A stretch of 64,000 nt of DNA. It comes from an uncultured Bacilli bacterium. GTDB lineage: Bacteria; Bacillota_I; Bacilli_A; RFN20; CAG-826. Below are positions 11,421 through 27,345 of the stretch, one piece after another. The position numbers and the translations under genes are program-made. The number at the start of each line of letters is the position of its first letter. Within the stretch, counting starts at the first letter, position 1. The notes below the pieces were generated by a model, which was not told where the DNA came from, ran no database searches, and worked only from the letters and a program-made list of their open reading frames with translations. The stretch lies in NCBI GenBank assembly GCA_944358985.1, contig CALVSI010000001.1, positions 13,846 to 77,845 of the forward strand, written 5' to 3'.

Positions 11421-11960
11421 ATGGTAAAACTGTTGATTGGAGTCGTTATCGCGGCTTTTGTCGTCATTGTTGGATTTTTAGTTATTGACCCGAATATTCA
11501 AAGCGCTACTAATCCAAATGTTGTGCTCACCACTGATTCGAATTCAAAATATTCAATCACTATCGAAGGCGAAGTTGAAAAACCCGGTACATATGTTTTG
11601 CAAGATGGCACAACTATGGATCAATTAATATCCGCAGCGGGTGGTTTAACAAGCAATGCAGATCAAAGATGCTTTTTTTCAACGACAATTTTAGAACAAG
11701 GAAATACTTATTATGTTGCACCATTATATGATGAGAGTGATATTTGTAATACGCTAGAAATATCTAAAGTTAACATCAATACTGATAATGCTGACACATT
11801 AATGACAATTAATGGATTTACTTCATCTATTTCCAACGCAATCGTTTCGTATAGAAGCGAAAATGGTCAATTTGAAACTATTGAAGAACTAGAAGAAGTT
11901 TATGGCATAGGGCCTGCAACTTACCAAAAAGTTAGAAATTACGTCATATTGCATGAATGA
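11421..11960 (+). CDS. comEA: ComEA-family competence DNA receptor (helix-hairpin-helix)
   Basis: N-terminal TM helix, SLBB-like segment (GEVEKPGTYVL..GTT..QLI..AGG) and C-terminal HhH (FETIEELEEVYGIGPATYQKV). AGGAGG SD lies 7 nt upstream of ATG 11421. The ORF-track start at 11403 is less likely. Confidence 0.8.
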   Translation: MVKLLIGVVIAAFVVIVGFLVIDPNIQSATNPNVVLTTDSNSKYSITIEGEVEKPGTYVLQDGTTMDQLISAAGGLTSNADQRCFFSTTILEQGNTYYVAPLYDESDICNTLEISKVNINTDNADTLMTINGFTSSISNAIVSYRSENGQFETIEELEEVYGIGPATYQKVRNYVILHE

Positions 11961-13969
11961 TTATATTTATAATTTTTATAGCAGTATGGCTCGCGTTAAA
12001 TTTTGTTAAATTCCCAATTTTGATATCATTACTTGGAGTGGCTATATTTATTTATTTTTTGAAGAAAATAAAATTGAAAAAATCTTTAATTTTCTTTGGC
12101 TCATTTATTCTTATCTCAACATTATCTTTCTATATCAATAAGCCACTTCCAAGTATTGATGAAAATTTTGGAATCGTTATATTAAGCAAAGAAAATTATT
12201 TTATATATTGGAGCAAATTTACAAAATATTATGTTTATAATGAAAATAATCAATTGCAAATAGGCGATATTTTATCGTTAAATGGGAATATTCAAAATAA
12301 TAATTTTGCATTTTTGGAAAGTTCTTTAAATTTTAATGAATATCTTAAAAATAAAGGTGTTTTTTATCAAATCAATAATCCAAAATTTGAGATAATATTT
12401 TCTAATCCTATAAGATTGAACGAGATTAAAAATAATTTTTTAAGCGGATTTTCTACAGAAAATCGTAACTTTATTGATTCGTTATTTTTTGCAAACAGCC
12501 ATTATGATGATCAATTTATATCATTGCTTTCAAGTATGCATTTATATCGATTGATGTCGACATCTGGTTTAATAATATATTCCTTGTTGAACGGACTAAT
12601 TTATATTTTAAGTCTTAAAATAAATGAAAAATATGCAAAAATAGTTGCACTAATAATATTATCTTTTTATTTAATTTTTACCTTGTTTAAATTTTCTATT
12701 TTACGTCTTACGATATTATTTGTTCTACGTTGGATAAATCAATATATTTTAAAAAATAAATTTTCTTACATTACGATATTATCATTTTCCGGATTGCTGT
12801 TTTTGTTGTTTAATCCATTTTTAGCTTATCAAGATGGCTTTACACTAGGTTATTTAATGTCGTTATTAATTTATTTCACTAGAAATTCTTTTTCATTTTT
12901 AAAATCTTTTAAGAAAAAAATATTATTAACTATTGTTATATTCTTATTTTTTATTCCTTTTGAAAGTCAATACTATCATGAAATATCTTTGTTTTCTTTT
13001 GTTATAACCCCATTGTTAACGCCGCTAATTATATTGATAAGTTCGTTTTGTTTGATATCTTTTTATGGCATTAGATTAACAAATATAATTGAAAATCTTA
13101 CTAATTTTCTAAAAACCATTGTTAATTTTATAAACCCATTAATGATAAATATTCATTGTCCTGAAATGAACATATATTTATCGATAATTTTCGAAGGTAT
13201 TTTAATATTATTGCTTTATATTTTTTCAATACGTTTTAAACCATTTTACAAATTGTCTTTTATATATTTAACCTTATTAGTGCTTTATTTTATTCCATTA
13301 AACAATTTTATTTACGACGAGATTAGTTTTATAAATGTCGGGCAAGGCGACTCCACGTATATTAGATACAATAATCAGCATATCTTAATTGATACAGGTG
13401 GTAGTCTATATAATGACATTGCTAAGGAATGTTTAATACCATTTTTTAAAAAAAGAAGAATATATCATCTTGATTATGTAATAACTACTCATAATGATTT
13501 TGATCATGTAGGAGCGCTAGATTCTTTAATTAATAATTTTAAGATCGAAAATTATATAAATTCTGATGAAAATTTTCCATTACAAATTAATGATTTAACC
13601 ATATACAACCTAAACAGCAAAATTTCCTCGCAAGATGATGAAAATGATCGTTCGCTTGTCTTGTATTTTTCATTAAACGAAACAAAAATTATGTTAATGG
13701 GGGATGCATCAACAAAAATAGAAAATAACATCATGAACGAATATTCAAATTTGTCATGTGACATTTTAAAAATAGGTCATCACGGTTCTAAAACATCCAC
13801 TTCAGAAGATTTTATTTCTTTTTTAAATCCAAAAAAAGCAATAATTTCATGTGGTCTAAACAATTATTATGGTCATCCAGACCCATACGTTATTAGTGTT
13901 TTAAAACGATATAATGTCGCTATATTAAGAACAGATTTGATGAACACGATTTCTTTTTATTTTTCCTAA
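11957..13969 (+). CDS. comEC: ComEC/Rec2 DNA internalisation channel with C-terminal metallo-beta-lactamase domain
   Basis: 670-aa polytopic membrane protein. N-terminal OB-like segment, competence membrane domain, and MBL domain (VGQGDS, THNDFDH, GHHGSKTS). Overlaps the comEA stop by 4 nt. Confidence 0.85.
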   Translation: MIIFIIFIAVWLALNFVKFPILISLLGVAIFIYFLKKIKLKKSLIFFGSFILISTLSFYINKPLPSIDENFGIVILSKENYFIYWSKFTKYYVYNENNQLQIGDILSLNGNIQNNNFAFLESSLNFNEYLKNKGVFYQINNPKFEIIFSNPIRLNEIKNNFLSGFSTENRNFIDSLFFANSHYDDQFISLLSSMHLYRLMSTSGLIIYSLLNGLIYILSLKINEKYAKIVALIILSFYLIFTLFKFSILRLTILFVLRWINQYILKNKFSYITILSFSGLLFLLFNPFLAYQDGFTLGYLMSLLIYFTRNSFSFLKSFKKKILLTIVIFLFFIPFESQYYHEISLFSFVITPLLTPLIILISSFCLISFYGIRLTNIIENLTNFLKTIVNFINPLMINIHCPEMNIYLSIIFEGILILLLYIFSIRFKPFYKLSFIYLTLLVLYFIPLNNFIYDEISFINVGQGDSTYIRYNNQHILIDTGGSLYNDIAKECLIPFFKKRRIYHLDYVITTHNDFDHVGALDSLINNFKIENYINSDENFPLQINDLTIYNLNSKISSQDDENDRSLVLYFSLNETKIMLMGDASTKIENNIMNEYSNLSCDILKIGHHGSKTSTSEDFISFLNPKKAIISCGLNNYYGHPDPYVISVLKRYNVAILRTDLMNTISFYFS

Positions 13970-13977
13970 AATATATA

Positions 13978-14006
13978 TTTACATATATATCTATAATAGA
14001 TATAAT
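13978..14006 (+). promoter_or_regulatory. candidate sigma-A promoter for the rex-adhE array
   Basis: TTTACA (13978-13983), 17-nt spacer, TATAAT (14001-14006). It lies 40 nt upstream of the rex ATG. In such AT-rich DNA this is only a candidate. Confidence 0.4.
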
Positions 14007-14045
14007 AATATCGATAAAAAAACATCGATTTGGAAAGGAGGGTAA

Positions 14046-14696
14046 ATGGAGTCAAAAAAAATCATATCATATTCGCTTAATACAATACAAAGAATGCCTG
14101 CGTATTTAAGAGTTTTAAATCAATTAAAAGATGAAAACATCGAGTATGTTTCTTCCAACAAAATTGGCGAATTGTTAAATTTAAAGCCAATTTTGGTAAA
14201 AAAAGATTTGGGCTTGGTGACATCACAACAAGGTAAACCACGACTAGGTTTTAAAATTTCAATTTTAATTAGCGACATCGAGACATTTTTAGGTTATGAT
14301 AATAGTAAAGATGCTCTTATTATTGGTGTCGGTCATTTAGGAAGAGCGTTATTAAGCTATCCAGGATTTAAAAATTATGGTGTTAATATTTGTCTTGGAT
14401 TTGATATTGATAATCAAATAATAGGTAAAACAATAGATGGTGTAACAATTATGCCAATGTCTAAATTAGAAGACTTGACTAATCGATTGCATATTCATAT
14501 TGCTATTATTTGCGTGCCAAAGGAATTTGCTCAAGAAATAGTTGATCGTTTAGCGACGACATGTATCCGTGCAATTTGGAATTGGGCACCGATTGACTTA
14601 AATGTTCCCAGTTATATTGCTGTGAAAAACGAAGACATTGCGACTTCATTAGCCGTTTTGACCAATAAGATGAAAGAAATCATGAAAAGGAAATGA
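14046..14696 (+). CDS. rex: redox-sensing transcriptional repressor Rex
   Basis: 216 aa. N-terminal wHTH (RMPAYLRVL) and Rossmann NADH-binding GVGHLGRAL. GGAGG SD upstream. Confidence 0.85.
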   Translation: MESKKIISYSLNTIQRMPAYLRVLNQLKDENIEYVSSNKIGELLNLKPILVKKDLGLVTSQQGKPRLGFKISILISDIETFLGYDNSKDALIIGVGHLGRALLSYPGFKNYGVNICLGFDIDNQIIGKTIDGVTIMPMSKLEDLTNRLHIHIAIICVPKEFAQEIVDRLATTCIRAIWNWAPIDLNVPSYIAVKNEDIATSLAVLTNKMKEIMKRK

Positions 14697-14700
14697 GAAG

Positions 14701-17313
14701 ATGGAAGAAAGAAAATTAATCGACAGTGTTGAAGCATTAGAAGAAGAAATTAAAAATGTAAGAGCTGCACAGGCAAAATTTTCAACCTATACGCAAGAGC
14801 AAGTTGATGCTATATTTTTTGCCGCTGCAAAGGCCGCTAATCAAGCTAGAATTCCATTAGCAAAATTAGCCGTTGAAGAAACTGGTATGGGTGTTGTGGA
14901 AGATAAAGTTATCAAAAACCATTTTGCCAGTGAATATATCTATAATGCTTATCGTCATAGCCAAACAGTTGGCGTTTTTGAAGAAGACAAAGAATATGGT
15001 ATTAAAAAACTTTACGAACCAATTGGTGTTATAGCGGCTGTTATTCCAACAACCAATCCAACATCAACCGCAATTTTTAAGACACTTATTTCTTTAAAAA
15101 CAAGAAATGGTATTATTATATCCCCACACCCAAGAGCTAAAAAATCTACAATAGCCGCTGCTAAAATAGTTTTAGATGCCGCTGTTAAAGCTGGTGCACC
15201 TGAAAATATTATTTCTTGGATTGACGTTCCAAGTCTTGATATGACCACTCTTTTAATGAAAGAGGCTGATATAATTTTAGCAACTGGCGGTCCTGGTATG
15301 GTTCACGCTGCTTATAGTAGCGGAAAACCTGCTTTAGGAGTTGGTGCAGGTAACACACCTGCTATTATCGATAGCAGTGCTGATATAATTTTAGCGGTTA
15401 ACTCGATTATTCATTCAAAAACATTTGATAATGGCATGATTTGTGCAAGTGAACAATCTTGTATTGTTTTAGATGATGTCTATGATAAAGTTAAAAATGA
15501 ATTTATCAAGCGTGGATGTTATTTCTTAAATCCTGAAGAAACTGAAAAAGTTAGAAAAACTATTATAATAAATGGTGCTTTAAATGCAAAAATTGTCGGA
15601 CAAAAAGCCCACACAATAGCAAAACTTGCAAATGTTGATGTTCCTGAATCAACAAAAATTTTAATAGGTGAAGTGAGTTCTGTTGATATTAGCGAAGAAT
15701 TTGCTCATGAAAAATTATCACCAGTTTTAGCGATGTATCATGCAAAAGATTTTAATGAAGCTATTGATAAAGCAAGCCATTTAGTTGCTGATGGCGGTTA
15801 TGGTCATACATCTTCCTTATATATTAACGTAGTTGCAGGTCAAGATAAAATTGCTATTTTCCAAGAAGCGATGAAAACTTGCCGTATTTTAATTAACACT
15901 CCATCTAGCCAAGGTGGTATTGGTGATTTATATAATTTTAAATTAACACCATCACTGACATTAGGATGCGGTTCTTGGGGTGGAAACTCAGTAAGTGAAA
16001 ATGTCGGTATAAAACATTTATTAAATATTAAAACTGTTGCTGAAAGGAGAAATAACATGTTGTGGTTTAGAACACCAAGCAAAGTTTATATTAAAAAAGG
16101 ATGTTTGCCAGTTGCTTTAAAAGAATTAAAAGATGTATACAACAAGAAAAAAGCTTTTATTGTGACCGATACATTCTTATATAAAAACGGATATACAAAA
16201 ACAATTGAAAATAGCCTAAATGAAATGGGAATCGAGCATCAAACATTTTTCGATGTCGCACCAGATCCAACTTTAAAATGTGCAAAAGAAGGAGCAAAAC
16301 TAATTGATGCTTTTGAACCAGATGTTATCATTGCTGTTGGCGGTGGTAGTGCAATGGATGCTGGTAAAATCATGTGGGTATTATATGAGCATCCAGAAGT
16401 AGATTTCCAAGATATGGCTATGCGTTTTAGTGATATTCGTAAAAGAGTTTATCAATTCCCAAAAATGGGTGAGAAAGCTTTATTTATTGCCGTTCCGACT
16501 AGTGCAGGTACTGGTAGTGAAGTTACACCATTTGCCGTCATCACTGACGAGACAACCGGAACAAAATATCCGTTAGCGGATTATGAATTATTGCCAAATA
16601 TGGCGATAGTTGACGCTGATTTGATGATGAATGCTCCAAAAGGCTTAACTAGTGCAAGTGGTATTGATGCTGTCAGCCACAACTTAGAAGCCTTAGTTTC
16701 AACTATGGCAACTGATTATACTGATAGTATTGCTCTTCAATCATTGAAAATGATTTTTGAATATTTACCTCGTGCATACAATGATGGTCCAAATGACATT
16801 GAAGCTCGTGAAAAAATGGCCAATGCTGCTACTATGGCAGGTATGGCATTTGCAAACGCTTTCTTAGGTGTTTGTCACTCAATGGCTCATAAATTAGGTG
16901 CTTTCCATCATATCGCCCATGGTGTTGCAAATGCGCTAATGTTAGAAGAAGTTATTCGTTTTAATAGTGTGGATGTTCCAACTAAAATGGGCACCTTCCC
17001 ACAATATGATCATCCTTTTGCGAAACATAAATACGCTATGGCAGCGGATGCTTTAGGTTTGAAAGGTAAAAACGATGATGAAAAGGTTGAATCATTAATT
17101 AAAGCTGTGCACGAATTAAAAGAAAAAATCGGAATTAAACCAACGATTAAAGATTATGGCATTGATGAGAAAAATTTCCTTGATCGACTCGATGATATGG
17201 TTGAACAAGCTTTCGATGATCAATGTACAGGTGCTAATCCTCGTTATCCATTGATGAGCGAAATTAAAGAAATGTATTTAAATGCCTATTATGGAAAGAA
17301 AGCAGGTAAGTAA
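14701..17313 (+). CDS. adhE: bifunctional acetaldehyde-CoA / alcohol dehydrogenase
   Basis: 870 aa. N-terminal ALDH domain (catalytic ..MICASEQS..), a linker, and a C-terminal iron-ADH domain (GGGSAMDAGK and the CHSMAHKLG..HHIAHG metal motif). Confidence 0.95.
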   Translation: MEERKLIDSVEALEEEIKNVRAAQAKFSTYTQEQVDAIFFAAAKAANQARIPLAKLAVEETGMGVVEDKVIKNHFASEYIYNAYRHSQTVGVFEEDKEYGIKKLYEPIGVIAAVIPTTNPTSTAIFKTLISLKTRNGIIISPHPRAKKSTIAAAKIVLDAAVKAGAPENIISWIDVPSLDMTTLLMKEADIILATGGPGMVHAAYSSGKPALGVGAGNTPAIIDSSADIILAVNSIIHSKTFDNGMICASEQSCIVLDDVYDKVKNEFIKRGCYFLNPEETEKVRKTIIINGALNAKIVGQKAHTIAKLANVDVPESTKILIGEVSSVDISEEFAHEKLSPVLAMYHAKDFNEAIDKASHLVADGGYGHTSSLYINVVAGQDKIAIFQEAMKTCRILINTPSSQGGIGDLYNFKLTPSLTLGCGSWGGNSVSENVGIKHLLNIKTVAERRNNMLWFRTPSKVYIKKGCLPVALKELKDVYNKKKAFIVTDTFLYKNGYTKTIENSLNEMGIEHQTFFDVAPDPTLKCAKEGAKLIDAFEPDVIIAVGGGSAMDAGKIMWVLYEHPEVDFQDMAMRFSDIRKRVYQFPKMGEKALFIAVPTSAGTGSEVTPFAVITDETTGTKYPLADYELLPNMAIVDADLMMNAPKGLTSASGIDAVSHNLEALVSTMATDYTDSIALQSLKMIFEYLPRAYNDGPNDIEAREKMANAATMAGMAFANAFLGVCHSMAHKLGAFHHIAHGVANALMLEEVIRFNSVDVPTKMGTFPQYDHPFAKHKYAMAADALGLKGKNDDEKVESLIKAVHELKEKIGIKPTIKDYGIDEKNFLDRLDDMVEQAFDDQCTGANPRYPLMSEIKEMYLNAYYGKKAGK

Positions 17314-17315
17314 AG

Positions 17316-18071
17316 ATGGAACAAAAAAGAATTGTTGCGGTTCGTACTGGGAAGACAATTTATCGCGATGGTGATAAATTGTACAAAGTTTTTGAAGAAA
17401 AGTATAAAAAAAGCGACATTTTAAATGAAGCTTTAAATCACGCTCGCATTGAGGAAAGCGGTTTAACTGTTCCTATTTTATATGAAGTAGGAACAATTGA
17501 TGGAAAATGGTCTTTAGTCTATCAATATATTAAGGGAAAGACATTAGAACAATTGATGGATAAAAATCCTGAAAAGATTGATGAATATTTAGATTTATTT
17601 GTTAATATTCAAATGGAAATTCATTCAAAATCCATTCCACATCTAAATAAAATCAAAGATAAAGTCAAAGATCGTATTAGCATATGCTCTGATTTAGATG
17701 CAACAACAAGATATGAACTTCATACACGTTTAGCTTCTATGCCCACACATGATCATGTCATACATGGCGACTTTAATCCTTCTAATGTAATTATTAGTGA
17801 TGAAGATAAAAAGATTTACGTTATTGACTGGTCACACGCTAGTCAAGGAAATTCTTCTTATGATGCTGCTATGACTTATCTTTTATTCCAATTAAGTGGT
17901 AATTTATCATTAGCAGATAAATATCTTGAAGTATATTGCAAAAAAACAAATACGCCATTAAATTATGTTCAAACTTGGATACCATTAGTGGCTGCAGCAC
18001 GTTTAGCAACTTGCAAAAAAGAAGAAGTTGAATTTTTAAAACATGCATTAAATATTTATGATCATGAATAA
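17316..18071 (+). CDS. APH/choline-kinase-fold phosphotransferase (small-molecule or protein kinase, substrate unknown)
   Basis: 251 aa. Catalytic-loop motif HGDFNPSNVII (HxDxxxxN) and metal-binding IDWSHA (the DFG equivalent). N-lobe Lys candidate in KLYKVF. Confidence 0.7.
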   Translation: MEQKRIVAVRTGKTIYRDGDKLYKVFEEKYKKSDILNEALNHARIEESGLTVPILYEVGTIDGKWSLVYQYIKGKTLEQLMDKNPEKIDEYLDLFVNIQMEIHSKSIPHLNKIKDKVKDRISICSDLDATTRYELHTRLASMPTHDHVIHGDFNPSNVIISDEDKKIYVIDWSHASQGNSSYDAAMTYLLFQLSGNLSLADKYLEVYCKKTNTPLNYVQTWIPLVAAARLATCKKEEVEFLKHALNIYDHE

Positions 18072-18083
18072 GGGAGAAAAATT

Positions 18084-18332
18084 ATGGTAAAAGTAACAGT
18101 TTGCATTGGCAGTTCTTGTCATTTGAAAGGTTCAAGACAAGTAGTCGAAGAATTACAATATTTAATAAAAGAAAATAATGTTGGCGATGATGTCAATTTA
18201 AGTGGTGCATTTTGTATGGGCCGTTGCCAAGAAAATGGTGTTAATGTCACAGTTGATGGTCAACATTTTTCTATAACTCCTGATGAAGTCAAAGACTTCT
18301 TTAAAAAGGAAGTATTGTCAAAAATTAAATAA
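18084..18332 (+). CDS. thioredoxin-like [2Fe-2S] ferredoxin (NuoE/HndA-like; hfsA-like position)
   Basis: 82 aa with Cys pattern C7-x4-C12...C44-x3-C48 (CIGSSCH ... CMGRC), typical of thioredoxin-like 2Fe-2S proteins. Confidence 0.65.
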   Translation: MVKVTVCIGSSCHLKGSRQVVEELQYLIKENNVGDDVNLSGAFCMGRCQENGVNVTVDGQHFSITPDEVKDFFKKEVLSKIK

Positions 18333-18358
18333 TTAAAATTACTGATACGGATAAGCAT

Positions 18359-20068
18359 ATGATTAATTTTCTTGAATTTAAACCCGCTAAGTGCAAGGAC
18401 TGCTATAAATGTTTGAAACATTGTCCTGTCGGAGCTATTGAAGTTATTAACCATCAAGCCCAAATCATTTCTCAACGCTGTATTTTGTGCGGAACATGCA
18501 CATTAGTTTGTCCACAAAATGCCAAAAAAGTTCATAATTCAATTGATGAAGTGCTGGAATTACTTAATGGTCAAGAAGTCATAGCTAGTGTTGCACCAAG
18601 TTTTGCTTCTAGTTTTAATATTGAAGATTTTTCGATAATGAATAATGCTTTAAAAGAAATCGGATTTACTAGCAGTGAAGAAACCGCAATTGGTGCATAC
18701 GCTGTTAGTCGAGAATATGAAAAAATGCTTGAAAGTGGTAAATTCAAAAATTTAATTTCATCTGCTTGTCCTGCTGTCAATAAAATGATACAGCTTTATT
18801 ATCACGATGCTTTAAAATATCTTGCTCCTTGTGATTCTCCAATGGTGGCCCACTATAAAATTATCAAAGCCAAACATCCAAACGCTAATGTTGTTTTTAT
18901 TGGACCATGTATTGCTAAGAAAAAAGAAGCATACGAAAATGGTTTGGATGGATCTTTGACTTTTGAAGAGTTAGATCAAATCTTTAAGTCTAAAAACATT
19001 ATGTTGAAAGATGAAAAAAGCAAGACTAATTCCACTGGATTTGTTAATAAAGCAAAATTTTATCCAATTTCTCGTGGTATAATCAAATCTTTTGATTATT
19101 TTGTCAAAGGTTATGAATATATTGCTAGTGATGGTAATGAAAATTGTCGCGAAGTTTTAGAAAACATTAAAGATGTTGAAGGTGTTTTTATTGAATTAAA
19201 TTCTTGTGAACATGCATGTATCAACGGACCTTGTTCATTAATTAAAAAAGGTAGTGCAGTAAAGGCTAATTGTTCTATACGTCGCTATGTTAATAAAGAT
19301 TTAAGAAATGGCGGTTCAGATAAACTTGATATTCCAGAAAACATCGATTTTTCACACACATATAGTCCAATTGATCCAATGGATAGAACACCAAGCGAAG
19401 AGGAAATTCGTCAAATATTAGCACGTACTGGTAAATTTAGCAAAGACGATGAACTCAATTGCGGTGCTTGTGGTTATGATACTTGTCGGAAAAAAGCTTG
19501 GGCGGTAGCAAATGGTTATGCTGATATTGAAATGTGTGTGCCATACATGAGAAAAAAAGCCGAATCAATGTCATATGAAATTATTCAAAATATGCCTAAC
19601 GGTATCATTGTTATTGATAGCAATTATAAAATTAAAGAAATTAATTCTAATGCTTCAAGCTTATTTTTAGTTTCACCAAATGAAGCAAAAAATATGTATG
19701 TTTATGAATTGATGGATTCAAGTGCATTTATAGATGCTTTGGAAAAAAAGAAAAATACTTATCATAAAAAAGTTAATTTACTTAAGACTCATTCTGTAGT
19801 AGAGATGACGGTGGTAGCGTTAAAAGAAGAAAATTCTGCTTTTGCAGTTTTAAAAGATATCACCGAAAAAGAAAAATCAAAAGAAGAATTTAATAAATTA
19901 AGATTAAATACAATAAATACAACAGATGAAGTAATAAAAAAGCAAATGCGTGTTGCCCAAGAAATAGCCTCAGTGTTAGGTGAAACGGTTGCTGAAACTA
20001 AGGTTGCTATTTTGAATTTGAAAAAAAGTTTAGAAAATGAAGACAAAAAAGAGGAAGGAAACGACTAA
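18359..20068 (+). CDS. hydS: sensory-type [FeFe] hydrogenase-like protein with PAS domain (HydS / HfsB-like, group C-like)
   Basis: Two CxxCxxCxxxCP ferredoxin motifs at the N-terminus. H-domain with altered cluster motifs (SSACP, GPCIAKKKE, ELNSCEHACING). An extra Cx2Cx4Cx16C motif (C368-C393). C-terminal PAS-like region and coiled coil. Confidence 0.8.
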   Translation: MINFLEFKPAKCKDCYKCLKHCPVGAIEVINHQAQIISQRCILCGTCTLVCPQNAKKVHNSIDEVLELLNGQEVIASVAPSFASSFNIEDFSIMNNALKEIGFTSSEETAIGAYAVSREYEKMLESGKFKNLISSACPAVNKMIQLYYHDALKYLAPCDSPMVAHYKIIKAKHPNANVVFIGPCIAKKKEAYENGLDGSLTFEELDQIFKSKNIMLKDEKSKTNSTGFVNKAKFYPISRGIIKSFDYFVKGYEYIASDGNENCREVLENIKDVEGVFIELNSCEHACINGPCSLIKKGSAVKANCSIRRYVNKDLRNGGSDKLDIPENIDFSHTYSPIDPMDRTPSEEEIRQILARTGKFSKDDELNCGACGYDTCRKKAWAVANGYADIEMCVPYMRKKAESMSYEIIQNMPNGIIVIDSNYKIKEINSNASSLFLVSPNEAKNMYVYELMDSSAFIDALEKKKNTYHKKVNLLKTHSVVEMTVVALKEENSAFAVLKDITEKEKSKEEFNKLRLNTINTTDEVIKKQMRVAQEIASVLGETVAETKVAILNLKKSLENEDKKEEGND

Positions 20069-21228
20069 TGTCTTTATTTGTTGACTTTGGATACACTTCT
20101 TTAAATCATTTTGGTGAAGAACTTTGTGGTGATAAAGTCGAATACGCTAAAAACGGGGATTATGTTACTCTTGTTTTGGCTGACGGATTAGGAAGTGGCG
20201 TTAAAGCTAATATTTTATCAACGCTGACATCAAAAATATTATGCACTATGGTTTCAAATAATGTTTCTATTAATGAATGTTTAGAAACAATGGTGGCTTC
20301 ATTACCGGTATGTAAAGAAAGAGGCTTAGCTTATTCTACATTTACCGTTATTCATTTAAACCATAGCGGCGATGGCTTTCTTTTTGAATTTGATAATCCA
20401 CAGGCGATTTATATTCATGATGGAAAATGTCTTGATTTAAATAGAAAAAAGCTTTTAATTTCTGGAAAAGAAGTTTATCAAAGTGAACTTAAATTAAAAG
20501 ATAATGATTATATTGTTACAATGTCGGATGGAGCGATACATGCTGGGATAGGTGCGACATTAAATTTTGGTTGGGAAAGAGAAGATATTAAAAAATACTT
20601 AGAATCTATTTATGATAGTAAGTTAAGTGCAAAAGCAATGGCAACCCAACTTGCAAAATCATGTAATGATTTATATTTAGATAAACCTGGTGATGACACG
20701 ACAATTGCCGCGATTAAAATTAGAAAATCTTTAAATGTTCATATTATGGTTGGACCACCTGTTGAAAAAGAAAAAGATGATTATTATGTTGCTAGATTTT
20801 TAGATGGTGCTGATAAAACAATCGTATGCGGAGGAACTTCTTCAACAATTGTTGCTAGATATTTGAAAAAACCAATTGAAGTTGATTTAAATTATTTAGA
20901 AGCTGACGTTCCACCCACAGGAAAAATTGAAGGTATAGATTTAGTAACTGAAGGAGTTTTAACTTTAAGAAGGTTACTAGAATTAAGCGAACAATATTTA
21001 TCTATTGTCGATTTGTCACCAAAAATATTTGTAAGACAAGATGGCGCGACACGTTTAGCGGATTTACTATTTGTTCAAGCTAGTGATGTGGTGTTTTTTG
21101 TCGGTCAATCTATCAATGCTGCCCATCAAGGTCTTCCCATTGATATTACTATGAAACTAAAATTAGTGGAATCTTTAGCAAATAACTTAAAAAAGATGGG
21201 AAAAAATGTTATTGTTAATTATGATTAA
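20068..21228 (+). CDS. PP2C/SpoIIE-family serine phosphatase with extra C-terminal domain (HfsC-like)
   Basis: Motifs EELCGDKVE, LVLADGLGSGVKA, TMSDGAIHAG and GDDTTIAAI. Its start overlaps the hydS stop (TAATG). The roughly 160-aa C-terminal domain is unassigned. Confidence 0.75.
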   Translation: MSLFVDFGYTSLNHFGEELCGDKVEYAKNGDYVTLVLADGLGSGVKANILSTLTSKILCTMVSNNVSINECLETMVASLPVCKERGLAYSTFTVIHLNHSGDGFLFEFDNPQAIYIHDGKCLDLNRKKLLISGKEVYQSELKLKDNDYIVTMSDGAIHAGIGATLNFGWEREDIKKYLESIYDSKLSAKAMATQLAKSCNDLYLDKPGDDTTIAAIKIRKSLNVHIMVGPPVEKEKDDYYVARFLDGADKTIVCGGTSSTIVARYLKKPIEVDLNYLEADVPPTGKIEGIDLVTEGVLTLRRLLELSEQYLSIVDLSPKIFVRQDGATRLADLLFVQASDVVFFVGQSINAAHQGLPIDITMKLKLVESLANNLKKMGKNVIVNYD

Positions 21229-21242
21229 TTAAGGAGTAATCT

Positions 21243-22688
21243 ATGAAAACTAAAAATTTCGATACCAAAGTACAAGATTTAAAATATCGTGTTTTAAAAG
21301 AAGTGGCACGTTTTGCATGGCAAGGAACTCTTTTAGATCATGTGATGGATATACCAAATATTATCGTTCCAGGCAAAAAACCAACAATGCGTTGCTGCAT
21401 ATATAAAGAAAAAGCTATTGCAGCTGAAAGAGTTAAACTAGCAATGGGAGGAAATCCAAATAATCCAAACGTTATAGAAGTAATTGATATTGCTTGTGAT
21501 GATTGTCCAACTGGTGGTTTTCATGTTACCGATGCTTGTCGTGGTTGTTTAGCGCATCGTTGTGAAGAAGCGTGTCGATTAAATGCAATTTATTTTGATG
21601 AAAATCGTCGTGCACATATTGATAAAAGCAAATGTGTCGAATGTGGAATGTGTGCTAAATCTTGTTTTTATAACGCTATTATTTCTTATAAAAGACCATG
21701 TGAAGCATCTTGTAAGATTAAAGCTATTACAATGAGCGAAGATAAGACAGCAAAAATCAACAATGAAGATTGTATTGCTTGTGGTGCTTGTTCCTATCAA
21801 TGCCCATTTGGTGCAATCATGGACAAATCATATATTATTAATGTTATTGATTTTATTAAAAATAGTCAAAATAATACAAAATATAAAGTTTATGCAATTG
21901 TTGCTCCTTCTATATCTAGTCAATTCCGCTACGCTAAACTTGGTCAAGTAATTGCAGGTTTGAAACAATTAGGTTTTTATAGTGTTGTAGAAGTGGCATT
22001 AGGTGCTGATATGGTCTCATATTTAGAAGGTCAAGAGTTAGCACAAAAAGGTTTTTTAACAAGTTCATGTTGTCCAGCTTTTGTTAGTTATATCGAAAAG
22101 AAATTTCCTAATTTAAAAGAACATGTTTCTCATAACTTATCTCCAATGGGAACTATTGCAAAATATATTAAAGAAACTGATCCAACCTGTAAAATTGTTT
22201 TTATTGGACCTTGCACTGCTAAAAAAATGGAAATAAAGCGTGATGAGGTTAAAGGATTAGTAGATGTAGCGATGACTTTTGAAGAATTACAAGCGCTTAT
22301 TGATTCTAAAGATATTGACTTAACAAAATTAGAAGAAGACGTTTTGGATAATGCTTCATATTATGGAAGAATATTTGCTCGTAGCGGTGGATTATCAGAT
22401 GCAGTTAAACAAGCAATCAAAGAACAAAATATTGATTTTGAAGTCAAACCAGAAATATGTAATGGAATTGAAGCGTGTCGTCTTGCTCTTCTTAAAAAGA
22501 CAAAAAATGCTTTGGACGCTAATTTCATTGAAGGCATGGCGTGCGTTGGCGGATGTATTGGCGGTGCTGGAAATATCACTCATGGAATTACAAATGCCGC
22601 GGAAGTTGACAAATATGGTCGTCTTGCTTTAGAAAAAACTATTACTAATGCTGTAAGCGTGTACAATTTAAACAAAAAAGACGAATAA
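21243..22688 (+). CDS. [FeFe] hydrogenase, catalytic-type H-cluster motifs, multi-FeS N-terminus (HfsD-like)
   Basis: H-cluster motifs L1 FLTSSCCPAF, L2 FIGPCTAKKME and L3 IEGMACVGGCIGGAG. At least two CxxCxxCxxxC(P) clusters plus further Cys-rich segments lie in the N-terminal 190 aa. Confidence 0.8.
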   Translation: MKTKNFDTKVQDLKYRVLKEVARFAWQGTLLDHVMDIPNIIVPGKKPTMRCCIYKEKAIAAERVKLAMGGNPNNPNVIEVIDIACDDCPTGGFHVTDACRGCLAHRCEEACRLNAIYFDENRRAHIDKSKCVECGMCAKSCFYNAIISYKRPCEASCKIKAITMSEDKTAKINNEDCIACGACSYQCPFGAIMDKSYIINVIDFIKNSQNNTKYKVYAIVAPSISSQFRYAKLGQVIAGLKQLGFYSVVEVALGADMVSYLEGQELAQKGFLTSSCCPAFVSYIEKKFPNLKEHVSHNLSPMGTIAKYIKETDPTCKIVFIGPCTAKKMEIKRDEVKGLVDVAMTFEELQALIDSKDIDLTKLEEDVLDNASYYGRIFARSGGLSDAVKQAIKEQNIDFEVKPEICNGIEACRLALLKKTKNALDANFIEGMACVGGCIGGAGNITHGITNAAEVDKYGRLALEKTITNAVSVYNLNKKDE

Positions 22689-22690
22689 TT

Positions 22691-23662
22691 ATGATTTATT
22701 TAATTTATGGTGTTCAAAATGTAATGATTAACAATCGAATTAAAAAGATTGTTAAAGAAAGATTACCTTTTACTGACGCCTTAAATTATGTTAATTTTGA
22801 TTTAGATAACGCGACATTAGAAGAAGCTTTAAATGAAGCTAGTTATTTACCGCTTGGTTACGATAATAAATTAGTGGTTATTAAAAATTGCTATTTTTTA
22901 AAATCACAGACTAGAGGTAAAAATAAAAACGATTCTACAAAAGATTCGGCATTACTGTACCGCTATTTAAAAAAAGATAATAGAGAATGCGATTTAATAT
23001 TAGTTTATCCAGATGTTGATTTAAATCTTAATAGCGATTTATTTAAATTGATTCAAGAAAAAGGAAAAATATTTAAATTAACAGTGGAGAAAAATGATTG
23101 GTATCCATATGTTTATCGTTATTTTACCGAAAGTTTGAAAATCAAAATCGATCGTGACGCTATTGAAGAATTAATAGTGCGTGTTAAAGGTGATTTGAAT
23201 ATTTTCGTTAATGAAGCTCAAAAACTTGCGTTATTGACAGATCACGTTCGTTACGAAGACGTTGTTAATATAGTTAGCCGTCCATTAGAAGATAATTTAT
23301 TTAATTTATTTAATTATTTGATGAACAATGATTCTACAAGTGCTTTAAAATTGCTTGATGATTTATATTTTGATGGTGTTGAACCGGTTAATTTAATTTC
23401 AATGCTTGCAAATCAATTTCGCGTGTTGTTAGAAATAATTTATTTGTGTACGAAAAAAATGAGTAACACCGAAATAGCAACCGAACTAAAAATTAATGAA
23501 GTTCGTGTGAAGATTTTAAAAAGGTATTTATATACAATGTCGCTTTCATCATTGATGAATACTTTAGATGAATTATATTGGATTGATTATAAAATAAAAA
23601 GCGGACAAGTTGACCGCTTTATCGCCTTTAAAATGTTTGTAATAAATTTTAAAACAAAATAA
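22691..23662 (+). CDS. holA: DNA polymerase III subunit delta
   Basis: 323 aa. Overall HolA-like pattern (IYLIYG...N..I, LVVIKNCYF). Sits in the conserved position next to a divergently terminated rpsT, as in Bacillus comEC-holA/rpsT. Confidence 0.8.
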   Translation: MIYLIYGVQNVMINNRIKKIVKERLPFTDALNYVNFDLDNATLEEALNEASYLPLGYDNKLVVIKNCYFLKSQTRGKNKNDSTKDSALLYRYLKKDNRECDLILVYPDVDLNLNSDLFKLIQEKGKIFKLTVEKNDWYPYVYRYFTESLKIKIDRDAIEELIVRVKGDLNIFVNEAQKLALLTDHVRYEDVVNIVSRPLEDNLFNLFNYLMNNDSTSALKLLDDLYFDGVEPVNLISMLANQFRVLLEIIYLCTKKMSNTEIATELKINEVRVKILKRYLYTMSLSSLMNTLDELYWIDYKIKSGQVDRFIAFKMFVINFKTK

Positions 23663-23670
23663 TTAAAGAA

Positions 23671-23934
23671 TTAACGAATGCTATTAACTAAATTTGCAAT
23701 TTCAGCTTTTTGTCTTGCAGCAGTGTTTTCGTGTTGAATTCCTTTAGAAACAGATTTGTCAATTAAGGAATATGCTTCCTTTGTTAAAGTTTCAGCAAGA
23801 GCAAGATCTTTTGCTTCAACCGCTTTTTTGACTTTTTTAATTGCTGTTCTTAATGCACTTTTTGCACTTGCATTGCGTTGACGAGCTTTTTCATTTGTTT
23901 TATTGCGTTTTTCTTGTGATTTAATATTTGCCAT
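23671..23934 (-). CDS. rpsT: 30S ribosomal protein S20
   Basis: 87 aa. MANIKSQEKR... is the canonical S20 N-terminus. AAGAGG SD lies 8 nt upstream on the minus strand. Confidence 0.95.
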   Translation of the reverse strand: MANIKSQEKRNKTNEKARQRNASAKSALRTAIKKVKKAVEAKDLALAETLTKEAYSLIDKSVSKGIQHENTAARQKAEIANLVNSIR

Positions 23935-23961
23935 AGTAAAACCTCTTTTATAACGATGTAT

Positions 23962-23990
23962 ATAATATCAAAAAAAGATTGTGCGTTCAA
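23962..23990 (-). promoter_or_regulatory. candidate rpsT promoter (minus strand)
   Basis: On the minus strand: TTGAAC (23990-23985), 17-nt spacer ending in TGA, and TATTAT (23967-23962), giving an extended -10 TGnTATTAT. Confidence 0.5.
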
Positions 23991-24047
23991 CATAAAATGT
24001 TGATATTTTAATATTTTCTACTTATTTTATTATTTTCAATTATAATA

Positions 24048-24992
24048 ATGAATATGGATAAAGAAAATATTCGAATTGTATTTATGGGAACTAGTGAAAT
24101 TTCTAGCTACGTCTTAGAAAAATTGATTAGTAATAAATTTAATATTGTTGGCGTTGTTTCTCAGCCAGATAAAGAAGTTGGAAGAAAAAAAATTATTACA
24201 CCGACACCATGTAAACTTATTGCTAATAAATATGGCATACCATGTTTTCAACCAATTAGAATCAAAAAAGAATTTGAATTTATTAAAGATTTAAATTGTG
24301 ACATTATTGTTACTTTTGCTTATGGTCAAATTATTCCGCAAGAATTGCTAGATATGCCAAGTATTGGTTCAATTAATTTGCATGGATCTATTTTGCCAAA
24401 ATATCGTGGTGCAGCCCCCGTTCAATGGGCTTTAATAAATGGTGAAATAAAAACTGGTGTCACGCTGATGGAAATGACCTATAAAATGGATGCAGGTCGT
24501 ATGTATGCTAAAAAATATGTCGATATTAGTGTCGAAGATAATGCTACAACTCTTTTTGAAAAAATCAAAAAATGTGCAAGTGATGTTATATTAGAATATT
24601 TGCCATTGTACGCTGATGGCAAATTAAAAGGGGAAGAACAAGATGAAGCCAAAGTCAGTTTTGCTAGGATGATTAAAAGTGAAGATGAAAAACTATCATT
24701 AGATTATAATTCTTCTACATTTGTTAATTGGATTAGAGGTTTAAGTGATGTTCCTGGTGGATATTTACTTTTAGATAATCAAAAATTAATTATTTATAAA
24801 GCTAAAATTTCTGATCAAAATTTTTCTGGAAAAATAGGTGAAATTGTAAACGCAGATAAAAATAGTTTAACAATCGCCTTAAAAGATGGATGTGTTGATA
24901 TTTTAGAGTTGAAATTGCAAGGCAAAAATCGATGCGATTACAAATCTTTTGTCAACGGCCATAAAAATTTAAAAGGTAAAATCTTATCATAA
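24048..24992 (+). CDS. fmt: methionyl-tRNA formyltransferase
   Basis: 314 aa. IVFMGTSE N-terminus, the SLNLHGSLLPKYRGAAP-type motif (SINLHGSILPKYRGAAPVQWA), and a C-terminal tRNA-binding domain. The start could also be ATG 24054. Confidence 0.9.
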   Translation: MNMDKENIRIVFMGTSEISSYVLEKLISNKFNIVGVVSQPDKEVGRKKIITPTPCKLIANKYGIPCFQPIRIKKEFEFIKDLNCDIIVTFAYGQIIPQELLDMPSIGSINLHGSILPKYRGAAPVQWALINGEIKTGVTLMEMTYKMDAGRMYAKKYVDISVEDNATTLFEKIKKCASDVILEYLPLYADGKLKGEEQDEAKVSFARMIKSEDEKLSLDYNSSTFVNWIRGLSDVPGGYLLLDNQKLIIYKAKISDQNFSGKIGEIVNADKNSLTIALKDGCVDILELKLQGKNRCDYKSFVNGHKNLKGKILS

Positions 24993-24996
24993 TATT

Positions 24997-27345
24997 ATGT
25001 CGATTTATGAATTAACATTATCTGTTCATCAATTAGTGGATTTTTTATTAAGAAGTGGAGATATTGATAATCGTATTTTTAATCGCGAAGCTATGAACGA
25101 GGGCTCGAGGTTTCATAGTTATTATCAAAACCAGCAAAACGAAAATTATATTAGTGAATATCCTTTAAAACACACTTTTAATTATGAAAATTATAAAATA
25201 ACTCTCCAAGGAAGAGCGGATGGAATAATTTTAGATAAAGGAAATTACATTATTGATGAAATCAAAACGACTGTTGATGATTTAAATGACTTTAAAAATA
25301 AAAATTATATTTGGCATTTAGGCCAAGCAAAATGCTATGGTTTACTTTTTATGATAGAAAGAGAAATTGACTTTGTTCAAATCCGGTTATCATATTTTAA
25401 ACAACAAAGTAAAGAAAAAATGTTCATTGTAGAAGATTTACATTTCAAAGATGCTGAAAAGTTTGTTTTTGATTTGTTTAGGCAATATCTTGATTTTTAT
25501 AACATAATAATAAGAAATCGTAATTTGTTAAACGAAACATCTAAAAAATTGCAATTTCCTTTTAAAAATTATCGAAAAGGTCAAAAAAAGTTAGCAAAAT
25601 TCGTTTATTTTGCAGGAAAAAATGACAAAAAATTATTTGTTGAAGCTCCTACAGGTATTGGCAAAACGATGTCGTGTTTATTTCCTTTTGTTAAACTTTT
25701 AAATGAAAATGAAAGAAGCAAAATTTTTTATCTTACCGCAAAAAATTCTGGTAAAGTCGCCGCTAAAAACGCACTAGGTATTTTACTAAATAGTGGATTG
25801 TCGTGTCATAGCATTATTGTCAGTGCAAAAGAAAAAATGTGTCCATTTAAAAATGCAAATTGCAATCCTGATGAATGTGAACTTACAGTCGGTTATTATA
25901 ACAAATTAGCAAAGGTTTTATCATATTACTTACAAAAAGAACAAACATTCGATAAAGAAATAATTTTAGATATCGCCGCAAAAGAAAAAATGTGTCCATT
26001 TGAATTAAGTTTAGATTTATCGTTGTATTGTGATTTAATTATTTGCGACTACAACTATTTTTTTGATCCATTAGTTTATATGAAACGATATTTTGATGAA
26101 GATGCATCATCTTTTTTAATATTAATTGATGAAGCTCATAATTTAGTTGAAAGAAGCAAAGAAATGTATAGTGCTAAAATAGATTTAAGCGCTATTAAAC
26201 AATATAAAAAAGAAAATAAAAATATTGAAAATGCTAAATTAAAAAGATCAATTAATAAATTAATTAAATTAATTAAAAATTATGATGAAAATTGTCCAAA
26301 TGAAAACAATATTTTACCAGATTTATTAGAAAAAACTTATACTTCATTAAAAAATTTTTATAACACATATCTAGATATATCAAAAAATGATAATAAAGTT
26401 ATAAAAAACGAATTAAATGAAATATTCTTGCAAGTTAATAAATTTTTAAAAATTTATGATTTTTATTCGGATTGTTACTTATTATATTTTCATAAAAAAA
26501 TTAATAAGAAATATAATTCTAATTTTTCTTTGAATTTAAAATGTCTTGATGCATCTAAATTTTTAAAAAGTTTAGAAAATATCGTTAAGTCGTGTGTATT
26601 TTTTAGTGCAACACTGACGCCATTTGATTATTACGCTGATTTATTAGGTGGTGATAAAGATCTCGATCCATATTTATCTTTGCCATCTCCTTTTCCTATG
26701 GATAATTTATTGTTGATGGTTGCTCCTAATATCTCTATAAAATATTCCAATCGTTCACTTACATATCAAATTGTTGTTGATTATATTAAAGAATTTATAT
26801 CACATAAAATTGGAAATTATTTTATTTATGTGCCTAGTTATGAATATTTAAATAATCTTTCATCATATTTATCAATACTGAATGCTGAAATTTATATTCA
26901 AAAGCAAGACATGAATGATGACGAAAAAATAGATTTTTTGGATAAATTTAGTATAAATCCAGTAAAAACTACTATCGGAATAGTTGTTTTAGGAGGGACA
27001 TTTTCAGAAGGAATAGATCTTGTAAGTGATCGATTAATTGGTGCTGTTATTATTGGAGTTGGTTTACCTAAAATAAGCTTTGAACTAGATGAGACAGTGA
27101 AATATTATGATAAAAAAAATATGCATGGTAACGATTATGTTTATGTTAATCCTGGGATGAATAAAGTTATGCAAGCTGTAGGGCGGGTTATACGAAGTGA
27201 AAAAGATCGTGGTGCAGTCTTATTAATAGATGAAAGATATACACTAAATAAATATCAGGACTTATTCAAGAAAGAATGGGCACATTATAAAGTCGTATTT
27301 AATAAAGAAGACATAAAGAAATTAATGAATAACTTTTATAAATAG
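24997..27345 (+). CDS. fusion of N-terminal RecB/Cas4-type PD-(D/E)XK nuclease domain with XPD/DinG-family Fe-S DNA helicase
   Basis: Nuclease motifs GRADG (D75), IDEIK (E88-x-K90) and QAKCY (QxxxY). Helicase Walker A APTGIGKT and DEAH box LIDEAHN. A four-Cys cluster lies between them (CPFKNANCNPDEC ... CPF). C-terminal motifs GTFSEGID and QAVGRVIR. Confidence 0.75.
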   Translation: MSIYELTLSVHQLVDFLLRSGDIDNRIFNREAMNEGSRFHSYYQNQQNENYISEYPLKHTFNYENYKITLQGRADGIILDKGNYIIDEIKTTVDDLNDFKNKNYIWHLGQAKCYGLLFMIEREIDFVQIRLSYFKQQSKEKMFIVEDLHFKDAEKFVFDLFRQYLDFYNIIIRNRNLLNETSKKLQFPFKNYRKGQKKLAKFVYFAGKNDKKLFVEAPTGIGKTMSCLFPFVKLLNENERSKIFYLTAKNSGKVAAKNALGILLNSGLSCHSIIVSAKEKMCPFKNANCNPDECELTVGYYNKLAKVLSYYLQKEQTFDKEIILDIAAKEKMCPFELSLDLSLYCDLIICDYNYFFDPLVYMKRYFDEDASSFLILIDEAHNLVERSKEMYSAKIDLSAIKQYKKENKNIENAKLKRSINKLIKLIKNYDENCPNENNILPDLLEKTYTSLKNFYNTYLDISKNDNKVIKNELNEIFLQVNKFLKIYDFYSDCYLLYFHKKINKKYNSNFSLNLKCLDASKFLKSLENIVKSCVFFSATLTPFDYYADLLGGDKDLDPYLSLPSPFPMDNLLLMVAPNISIKYSNRSLTYQIVVDYIKEFISHKIGNYFIYVPSYEYLNNLSSYLSILNAEIYIQKQDMNDDEKIDFLDKFSINPVKTTIGIVVLGGTFSEGIDLVSDRLIGAVIIGVGLPKISFELDETVKYYDKKNMHGNDYVYVNPGMNKVMQAVGRVIRSEKDRGAVLLIDERYTLNKYQDLFKKEWAHYKVVFNKEDIKKLMNNFYK
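25825..25848 (+). repeat. 24-nt exact direct repeat, copy 1 (GCAAAAGAAAAAATGTGTCCATTT)
   Basis: Identical to 25978-26001, 153 nt (51 codons) downstream and in the same frame. Encodes AKEKMCPF. Confidence 0.9.
25978..26001 (+). repeat. 24-nt exact direct repeat, copy 2
   Basis: Identical to 25825-25848. The flanking bases differ on both sides. Confidence 0.9.

Follow-up and report, generated by a model that had tools for sequence, protein, structure and literature searches.

Gene content and organisation of the cluster

Seven genes on the plus strand form a compact cluster at positions 14046-22688 of a 64-kb stretch of DNA from an uncultured Bacilli bacterium (contig CALVSI010000001.1). The whole 64-kb stretch is called the window here, and all positions are counted on its forward strand. 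The cluster joins the genes of the redox repressor Rex and of the dehydrogenase AdhE to a kinase gene and to a four-gene module with two [FeFe] hydrogenases, one of which (HydS) is a putative sensor. Judged by protein sequence comparison, it is the orthologue of the rex-adhE-kinase-2Fe2S(-2Fe2S)-hydS-PP2C-hydA2 cluster on the megaplasmid pRUMAL01 of Ruminococcus albus 7. Genes were taken from a list of open reading frames (ORFs), and families were assigned with Pfam and NCBIfam models against their curated cutoffs. The seven cluster genes are:

14046..14696, plus strand: rex, redox-sensing (NADH/NAD+) repressor (NF003994, 247.6 bits, cutoff 130; Put_DNA-bind_N, Pfam: PF06971; CoA_binding, Pfam: PF02629)
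14701..17313, plus strand: adhE, bifunctional acetaldehyde-CoA/alcohol dehydrogenase (NF010378, 1378 bits, cutoff 951)
17316..18071, plus strand: kinase of the APH/choline-kinase fold (APH, Pfam: PF01636, 49.7 bits, cutoff 23.2)
18084..18332, plus strand: thioredoxin-like [2Fe-2S] ferredoxin, HfsA-like (Pfam: PF01257, 28.6 bits, cutoff 24.8)
18359..20068, plus strand: HydS/HfsB-type putative sensory [FeFe] hydrogenase (two Fer4, Fe_hyd_lg_C, PF04060 and PAS domains)
20068..21228, plus strand: PP2C/SpoIIE-family phosphatase (Pfam: PF07228, 54.8 bits)
21243..22688, plus strand: group B monomeric [FeFe] hydrogenase, HydA2 orthologue (TIGR04105, 572 bits, cutoff 450)

An earlier reading, made from the sequence alone (the sequence-only reading), had described seven co-directional ORFs with very small gaps, and the ORF list returns these genes at exactly the same coordinates. 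The identities it had given them are borne out by family models that pass their curated cutoffs. From rex to the next gene downstream, holA, the gaps are 4, 2, 12, 26, -1, 14 and 2 nt, the negative value being a TAATG overlap of hydS with the phosphatase gene. A clear purine-rich ribosome-binding site precedes five of the seven genes; those ahead of the kinase gene and hydS are weaker, and the site of holA is poor. Rex has both the winged-helix N-terminal domain and the Rossmann NADH domain above the curated cutoff, and the small ferredoxin carries the cysteines C7, C12, C44 and C48 in a Cx4C...Cx3C pattern.

The claim that the cluster contains no internal terminator also stands. On the plus strand there are just two hairpins (at 14960 and 18486), both short, weak, within coding sequence and at chance level; terminator-like hairpins number 10 in total, against 5.9 ± 2.7 in shuffled sequence. 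Promoter-like hexamers inside the coding sequence are no commoner than in shuffled sequence either. The spacing of the genes and the precedent of R. albus suggest that all seven are transcribed as one unit.

Orthology to the Ruminococcus albus 7 cluster

A tblastn search of HydS against plasmids led to pRUMAL01 (NC_014824.1; L087 in our locus numbering). There, eight genes on one strand with gaps of at most 17 nt (RUMAL_RS17350 to RS17385) encode, in order, Rex, AdhE, a phosphotransferase, two 2Fe-2S proteins, a [FeFe] H-domain protein, a SpoIIE phosphatase and a 478-aa hydrogenase. BLASTP identities between the two clusters are 74% for AdhE, 66% for HydA2, 64% and 42% for the two copies of the 2Fe-2S protein, 54% for the kinase (RUMAL_RS17360), 45% for the PP2C, 40% for HydS and 36% for Rex (RUMAL_RS17350). 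The window proteins are each the best match to the corresponding R. albus protein, over nearly the full length, and cross-matches between HydS and HydA2 reach just 31-32%.

Gene content, order and the use of a single strand are thus shared. The differences are that R. albus has two 2Fe-2S genes where the window has one, and that its cluster lies on a megaplasmid whereas that of the window is chromosomal, between comEC and holA. The window cluster also has no terminator before holA, and the motif SSCCH of the R. albus HydS reads SSACP in the window, the proton-relay cysteine being replaced by alanine.

The sequence-only reading held that a fusion of adhE with an hfs-type module had not been characterised. 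This claim of novelty is wrong, because the pRUMAL01 cluster in the literature matches the window cluster gene for gene. According to the account in PMC5707799, Zheng et al. (2014, J Bacteriol 196:3840) had described rex, adhE and a kinase gene fused to an hfs-type module; they are cited there as proposing that HydS senses H2 and signals by its PAS domain to the adjacent Ser/Thr kinase. Greening et al. (2019) studied the cluster by RNA-seq. The R. albus cluster is reported to be one transcription unit that is repressed at low H2 (PMC10838669, PMC6776011). Its expression shifts as a whole, with about 100-fold lower transcript levels in the presence of an H2 consumer and a 111-fold decrease in co-culture (PMC6776011). 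What lies in the window is a known system found in another organism and no new system.

A second relative is the hfsABCD operon of Thermoanaerobacterium saccharolyticum. The sequence-only reading had pointed to this likeness, and the four-gene order at 18084-22688 agrees with the published description (PMC5707799), in which the gene for a small Fe-S protein is followed by those for a hydrogenase-like protein with a PAS domain, a PP2C and a [FeFe] hydrogenase. The likeness to HfsA-D (ACU11594 to ACU11597) is one of described composition and order, and PMC5707799 gives the R. albus hydS as a homologue of hfsB. The operon has been linked genetically to ethanol yield and to the adhE transcript level (Shaw 2009; Eminoglu 2017, PMC5707799). 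In T. saccharolyticum, however, adhE (Tsac_0416) and rex map to other parts of the chromosome, and the operon has no described kinase.

Conservation across genomes

A scan of GTDB with a HydS alignment, each species being represented by a single genome, gave 80 loci, which we mapped by BLASTP with the window proteins. A PP2C gene is adjacent to hydS in 76 of the 80 loci and a gene for a group B-like hydrogenase lies nearby in 37, rex in 17, full-length adhE in 17 and the kinase gene in 14. About 60 of the 80 loci have no adhE or rex nearby.

The complete order of seven or eight genes is present in five loci (L009, L015, L020, L027 and L061), and in four more (L013, L036, L040 and L085) it is broken off by contig ends. 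Two loci (L012 and L032) have the permuted order rex-2Fe2S-hydS-PP2C-hydrogenase-adhE-kinase, and in five others (L038, L042, L047, L048 and L049) adhE directly precedes or follows the hfs core and the kinase is absent. When the search was started from the kinase, four out of four kinases (58-63% identity) were found in the same seven-gene cluster, flanked by ribosomal-protein and aromatic-amino-acid genes and not by comEC and holA. The close relatives L089-L091, whose HydS is 72-79% identical to that of the window, keep comEA-comEC-[7 genes]-holA-rpsT. The combination is therefore seen in at least four arrangements and in several chromosomal contexts, and its carriers include Oscillospiraceae, metagenome-assembled genomes (MAGs) labelled Erysipelotrichaceae, a lineage with one kinase labelled Christensenellales, and others.

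Since the same order is found again in many unrelated genomes, the tight gene spacing is not a matter of chance. The linkage of adhE and the kinase gene to hfs-type genes, which the sequence-only reading had put forward, is likewise conserved in related genomes, as the survey of 80 loci and the kinase look-ups show.

Some loci lie in MAGs labelled Bacteroidales (L010, L011, L016-L019, L021, L022, L024-L026, L028-L030 and L083). Their HydS and PP2C are 46-54% and 54-64% identical to those of the window, nearer than most from Bacillota, and some of these MAGs have rex and a short alcohol dehydrogenase replacing adhE. The pattern suggests either transfer of the module between phyla or mis-binning. 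The best HydS match among 185,579 GTDB species representatives is 57% identical, and several metagenome assemblies from ENA and Logan contain near-identical copies (98-99%). In the GTDB collection the organism seems to have no close species representative.

The promoter region and the ATCGAT dyad

Two elements are placed in the spacer between comEC and rex:

13978..14006, plus strand: candidate sigma-70 promoter, TTTACA, 17-nt spacer, TATAAT (11 of 12 positions)
14008..14031, plus strand: operator-like dyad ATATCGATAAAAAAACATCGATTT, with the core ATCGAT-N8-ATCGAT at 14010-14029, beginning 2 nt past the -10 element

The candidate promoter, already picked out in the sequence-only reading, is the top sigma-70 match in the 14 kb from 11500 to 25500. 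In an alignment of the comEC-rex spacer the -35 element and the GATATAAT -10 element are kept in the three relatives L089-L091, and a conserved ATATCGATAAAAAAnnATCGAT element follows directly after the -10 in the window and all three. In the 64-kb window ATCGAT-N6-10-ATCGAT occurs once, at 14010-14029, against 0.03 sites expected.

We then surveyed all loci for the dyad with one mismatch allowed, for which the background is one site per 30.5 kb. It is present at the 5' end of 17 out of 22 clusters that begin with rex, R. albus 7 included, and of only 2 out of 62 that do not (2 of 37 beginning with the 2Fe-2S gene, 0 of 25 others). Its form is ATCGATA-N6-TATCGAT, 20 bp long, often as two or three overlapping boxes with a spacing of 14-15 bp. 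It stands upstream of rex in R. albus and in L092-L095, clusters of high G+C content, often as two overlapping copies (three boxes); the host of the window cluster, a gut bacterium of the Bacillota, is low in G+C (about 29%). Further sites lie at 4277-4297 of L087, 5666-5701 of L092 and 5541-5574 of L015. The rex promoter region of R. albus also has the dyad, there ahead of the -10 element, whereas in the window the dyad lies just past this element.

The canonical Rex operator was searched for as TTGTKAA-N4-TTMACAA with at most three mismatches and was not found in the promoter gap 13970-14045. Matches across the whole window are at chance level (66 against 58 ± 7), and canonical boxes with one mismatch stand upstream of the cluster only in L009 and L061. 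The correlation of the dyad with rex-first clusters suggests that the cluster-linked Rex uses a non-canonical operator at the dyad. The arrangement resembles that of Clostridia and Thermoanaerobacter, in which a Rex-family gene stands directly upstream of adhE, and an NADH-responsive logic fits. The operator there is canonical, whereas the window has this other, conserved 20-bp dyad instead. The NCBIfam subfamily was considered as the split between dyad-linked and canonical-box-linked Rex proteins and does not discriminate, NF003994 being the best model for all.

The dyad was also considered as an RNA hairpin. The changes in L091 (ACCGAT...ATCGAA) are not compensatory and the R. albus boxes lie upstream of the -10 element, so a hairpin was rejected as the main reading of the dyad. 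A scan of the whole window against Rfam gave no family at its gathering score, and hence no known riboswitch or leader in the 5' untranslated region. Single TATCGATA boxes are over-represented in the window, with 9 against 1.7 expected and none of 100 shuffles reaching 9; the sites include 5277, 13179, 15366, 29402, 53398, 58071, 63008 and 63389, and most are in coding sequence.

The HydS-type hydrogenase

HydS has two Fer4 domains, Fe_hyd_lg_C (Pfam: PF02906, 144 bits), PF04060 (40 bits) and a PAS domain (24.6 bits, cutoff 22.6). Its H-cluster motifs are SSACP, FIGPC and ELNSCEHACINGP, and a C-terminal cluster motif Cx2Cx4Cx16C is formed by C368, C371, C376 and C393. In the first motif (L1, 18758-18772) the proton-relay cysteine C299 is replaced by alanine. 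The equivalent of M353 is glycine (FIGPC) and that of M497 is asparagine (ELNSC). Among 82 HydS homologues the glycine is universal, asparagine or serine at the M497 position is nearly so, and the relay position is alanine or serine in about 30, the window included.

The architecture matches, as far as sequence features go, the M2f or group C type described by Land et al. (PMC8163306). With the HydS proteins of Thermotoga maritima (TmHydS; group C, M2f) and Thermoanaerobacter mathranii (TamHydS; group D, M2e) the window HydS shares two N-terminal [4Fe-4S] motifs, the H-domain, the Cx2Cx4Cx16C motif and the lack of C299. The glycine at M353 is also that of TmHydS, and the PAS domain is as in M2f (PMC8163306). 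The M497 equivalent differs, being asparagine in the window, serine in TmHydS and leucine in TamHydS, and the partner of the window HydS, as a further difference, is a PP2C. HydDB defines PP2C-linked enzymes as subtype C3, "phosphatase-linked (putative)" (PMC5037454). By this written definition, going by its adjacent PP2C gene, the window HydS falls into subtype C3.

The helix after the PAS domain (residues 518-558, window 19910-20032), with the sequence EVIKKQMRVAQEIASxLGETxAETKVA, is among the most conserved stretches of HydS, in R. albus too. This extreme C-terminal helix may serve in docking of the PP2C or in signalling to it.

The phosphatase and the kinase

The PP2C domain (PF07228) spans residues 30-218 of the phosphatase, and D22, D39, D154, D209 and D210 are invariant. 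In an AlphaFold2 model with a predicted local distance difference test (pLDDT) score of 83, the N-terminal half resembles SpoIIE, RsbU and RsbX, the Foldseek match to the SpoIIE phosphatase 5mqh having an E-value of 1.9e-13. The PP2C domain dominates the Foldseek list of the whole model. Behind it lies an alpha/beta domain (residues ~221-386, window 20728-21228) that is strongly conserved, with the invariant motifs CGGTSS, VPP, TEGV and AH, and is present in all HydS-linked PP2Cs examined, R. albus included. A Pfam search of this domain up to an E-value of 10 gave no family. Its sole profile match in the PDB, to a phosphoheptose isomerase/SIS domain, is weak (E-value 0.014) and was rejected.

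The kinase has the residue set of the APH/ChoK (eukaryotic-like) superfamily, namely a catalytic Lys and Glu, an HGDxxxxN loop and a metal-binding Asp. These residues (K24, E38, H150-G-D152, N157 and D171) are invariant across 17 homologues. The model of Hanks-type Ser/Thr protein kinases (Pkinase, Pfam: PF00069) scores 19.8 bits, under its cutoff of 31.7. The AlphaFold2 model of the kinase (pLDDT 84) has APH(3')-Ia, APH(4)-Ia, capreomycin phosphotransferase and choline kinase-like proteins as its nearest PDB structures (E-values 1e-9 to 1e-6, template modelling scores 0.5-0.6). Because the closest folds are aminoglycoside- and choline-type kinases, the label "Ser/Thr protein kinase" is an assumption. 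In two Clostridia/Oscillospiraceae MAGs (L033, 2298-3044; L034, 1617-2363) the kinase gene precedes 2Fe2S-hydS-PP2C-hydrogenase without adhE and with a PP-loop ATPase gene upstream, which ties the kinase to the HydS system and not strictly to adhE.

The catalytic hydrogenase and the 3' boundary

The H-cluster motifs of the catalytic hydrogenase, TSSCCP, FIGPC and EGMACVGGCIGG, are intact. Its TIGR04105 (group B1) score stands beside 577 bits for R. albus HydA2 (L087, 11844-13280). Class labels clash here, as HydA2 is called group A1 in Greening et al. 2019 and is group B1 by TIGR04105. R. albus HydA2 is described as a ferredoxin-dependent hydrogenase that works alone (PMC10838669), and as its orthologue the window enzyme would likewise be ferredoxin-dependent and H2-evolving.

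Two genes flank the cluster:

11957..13969, plus strand: comEC, upstream neighbour at the left edge of the cluster (Pfam Competence and Lactamase_B; TIGR00361, 186.7 bits, just below the cutoff of 190)
22691..23662, plus strand: holA, DNA polymerase III delta, functionally outside the module (TIGR01128, 217 bits)

In L090 (12323-12375) and L091 (12348-12415) the hydrogenase gene and holA are separated by a clear intrinsic terminator and a promoter. The window (22686-22693) and L089 are without this segment of 50-65 nt, with gaps of 2 and 1 nt between the two genes. Transcription probably runs on from the cluster into holA in the window genome, as this missing segment would imply. The essential holA probably depends on read-through of the operon or on a promoter hidden in the last hydrogenase codons, and it seems to be transcriptionally fused to a regulated fermentation operon.

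Proposed mechanism and alternative explanations

The cluster is probably an H2/NADH-responsive switch between ethanol and H2 of the R. albus type. Transcription would start from the single promoter and, going by the gene spacing and by R. albus, pass through the seven genes. AdhE, placed in its family by the window sequence, would re-oxidise NADH in forming ethanol, and reduced ferredoxin would be re-oxidised in the formation of H2 by the group B hydrogenase of HydA2 type; the physiology of both enzymes is taken from R. albus. Both outputs would be needed, as in R. albus, once H2 accumulates and the route through the bifurcating hydrogenase turns unfavourable; following the R. albus model, the operon would be on at high H2 and off at low H2. 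We suppose that HydS binds H2 at an H-cluster made catalytically poor by the loss of the relay cysteine and of both framing methionines, and that its C-terminal part, with the [4Fe-4S] cluster and the PAS domain, would relay the signal to the PP2C, to which it is coupled in translation. The APH-fold kinase would counteract the PP2C, and the phosphorylation state of their target would set expression or activity. Rex would supply the NADH/NAD+ input, and our best guess is that it acts at the dyad, which overlaps the presumed transcription start.

The sequence-only reading had already proposed that H2 and NADH together switch between ethanol and H2. This is reasonable, as all proteins are orthologous to those of pRUMAL01. 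The window lacks a canonical Rex operator, and the single transcript is an expectation from spacing and from R. albus.

In its most specific form the proposal takes ATCGATA-N6-TATCGAT, often in two or three overlapping boxes where transcription starts, as a non-canonical Rex operator, with Rex or a partner at the same site as the end-point of the signalling by HydS, PP2C and kinase. This form is tentative and on balance unlikely. If true, a single repressor would integrate H2, via phosphorylation, and NADH/NAD+, via its Rossmann domain, and it would be the long-sought link from hfs-type sensors to adhE expression.

Several points weigh against the R. albus-type switch. The canonical Rex box is absent within 300 nt upstream in both the window and R. 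albus. The link between dyad and Rex is a correlation, as L007 and L008 carry the dyad with no rex close by, and in L061 a rex of this subfamily goes with a canonical box while the dyad is absent. The kinase model is closest to small-molecule kinases, so the kinase may not phosphorylate a protein. Internal promoters within the coding sequence of the window cluster are possible. The relay cysteine is kept in about 50 of the 82 HydS homologues, R. albus among them, so going by these sequences the PP2C-linked HydS family is not uniformly relay-less. Assayed HydS-type enzymes retain slow, reversible H2 turnover (PMC8163306), and the hydrogenase activity of T. saccharolyticum is attributed to its hfs genes (PMC5707799), so HydS may not be purely a sensor.

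Three other explanations are less well supported than the R. albus model. The last three of these points would also fit a catalytic complex like HfsABCD, in which the 2Fe-2S protein, HydS and the group B enzyme would be subunits of one working hydrogenase and the PP2C an accessory. HydS would then serve mainly in electron transfer or catalysis, and the adjacency of adhE would mean that two Rex-controlled electron sinks are co-expressed. Deletion of the whole hfsABCD lowers hydrogenase activity (PMC5707799), and the core of 2Fe-2S, HydS and PP2C is near-universal among the loci: 76 of 80 have an adjacent PP2C gene, against only 37 with a group B hydrogenase gene nearby. When only hfsB is deleted, however, hydrogenase activity and the level of adhE transcripts go up, and A/B deletions differ in phenotype from C/D deletions; the authors infer regulation from this (PMC5707799). 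In the window HydS the relay cysteine and both framing methionines are missing and a PAS domain is present; kinase and phosphatase have no obvious role in such a complex, and R. albus HydA2, as noted, is described as acting alone. We consider a catalytic complex improbable.

Control could also be post-translational, with kinase and PP2C switching the activity of AdhE or HydA2, HydS setting the PP2C and Rex alone controlling transcription. The kinase gene directly follows adhE in 11 of the 14 loci that contain it, and in L012 and L032, where the pair stands at the opposite end of the cluster, it is still next to adhE. The hfs mutants of T. saccharolyticum have raised NADH-linked alcohol dehydrogenase activity with no comparable increase in aldehyde dehydrogenase activity, which the authors read as a sign of post-transcriptional regulation (PMC5707799). 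Yet L033 and L034 pair the kinase with HydS where adhE is absent, and the roughly 100-fold change in R. albus is one of transcript level (PMC6776011). This arrangement, too, appears improbable, slightly more so than the catalytic complex.

That Rex-adhE(-kinase) and the hfs-type genes are independent neighbours with their own promoters and no cross-talk, the kinase acting on a small molecule such as an antibiotic or metabolite, would suit the kinase's best structural matches, the roughly 60 of 80 HydS loci without nearby adhE or rex and the promoter-like hexamers in coding sequence, though these occur at shuffled-sequence frequency. It is very improbable, however. The genes overlap by 1 nt or stand only 2 to 26 nt apart, which leaves intergenic promoters no room, the combination is met with in at least four arrangements and in more than one chromosomal context, and the R. 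albus cluster changes expression as a whole (PMC6776011).

Implications

The partial pressure of H2 sets whether fermenters in the gut and rumen make acetate and H2 or pass electrons to ethanol. The R. albus-type cluster is the best candidate for the molecular switch between these outcomes. What this analysis adds to the known system is the dyad, the fold affinity of the kinase, the C-terminal domain of the PP2C and, ahead of holA in the window, the lack of the terminator and promoter that L090 and L091 have there. The fold of the kinase and the extra domain of the PP2C should guide the biochemistry, and the conserved dyad gives a concrete, testable handle on the signalling path. The arrangement in R. 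albus is no oddity of one plasmid, and is a mobile, widely conserved module in gut Bacillota.

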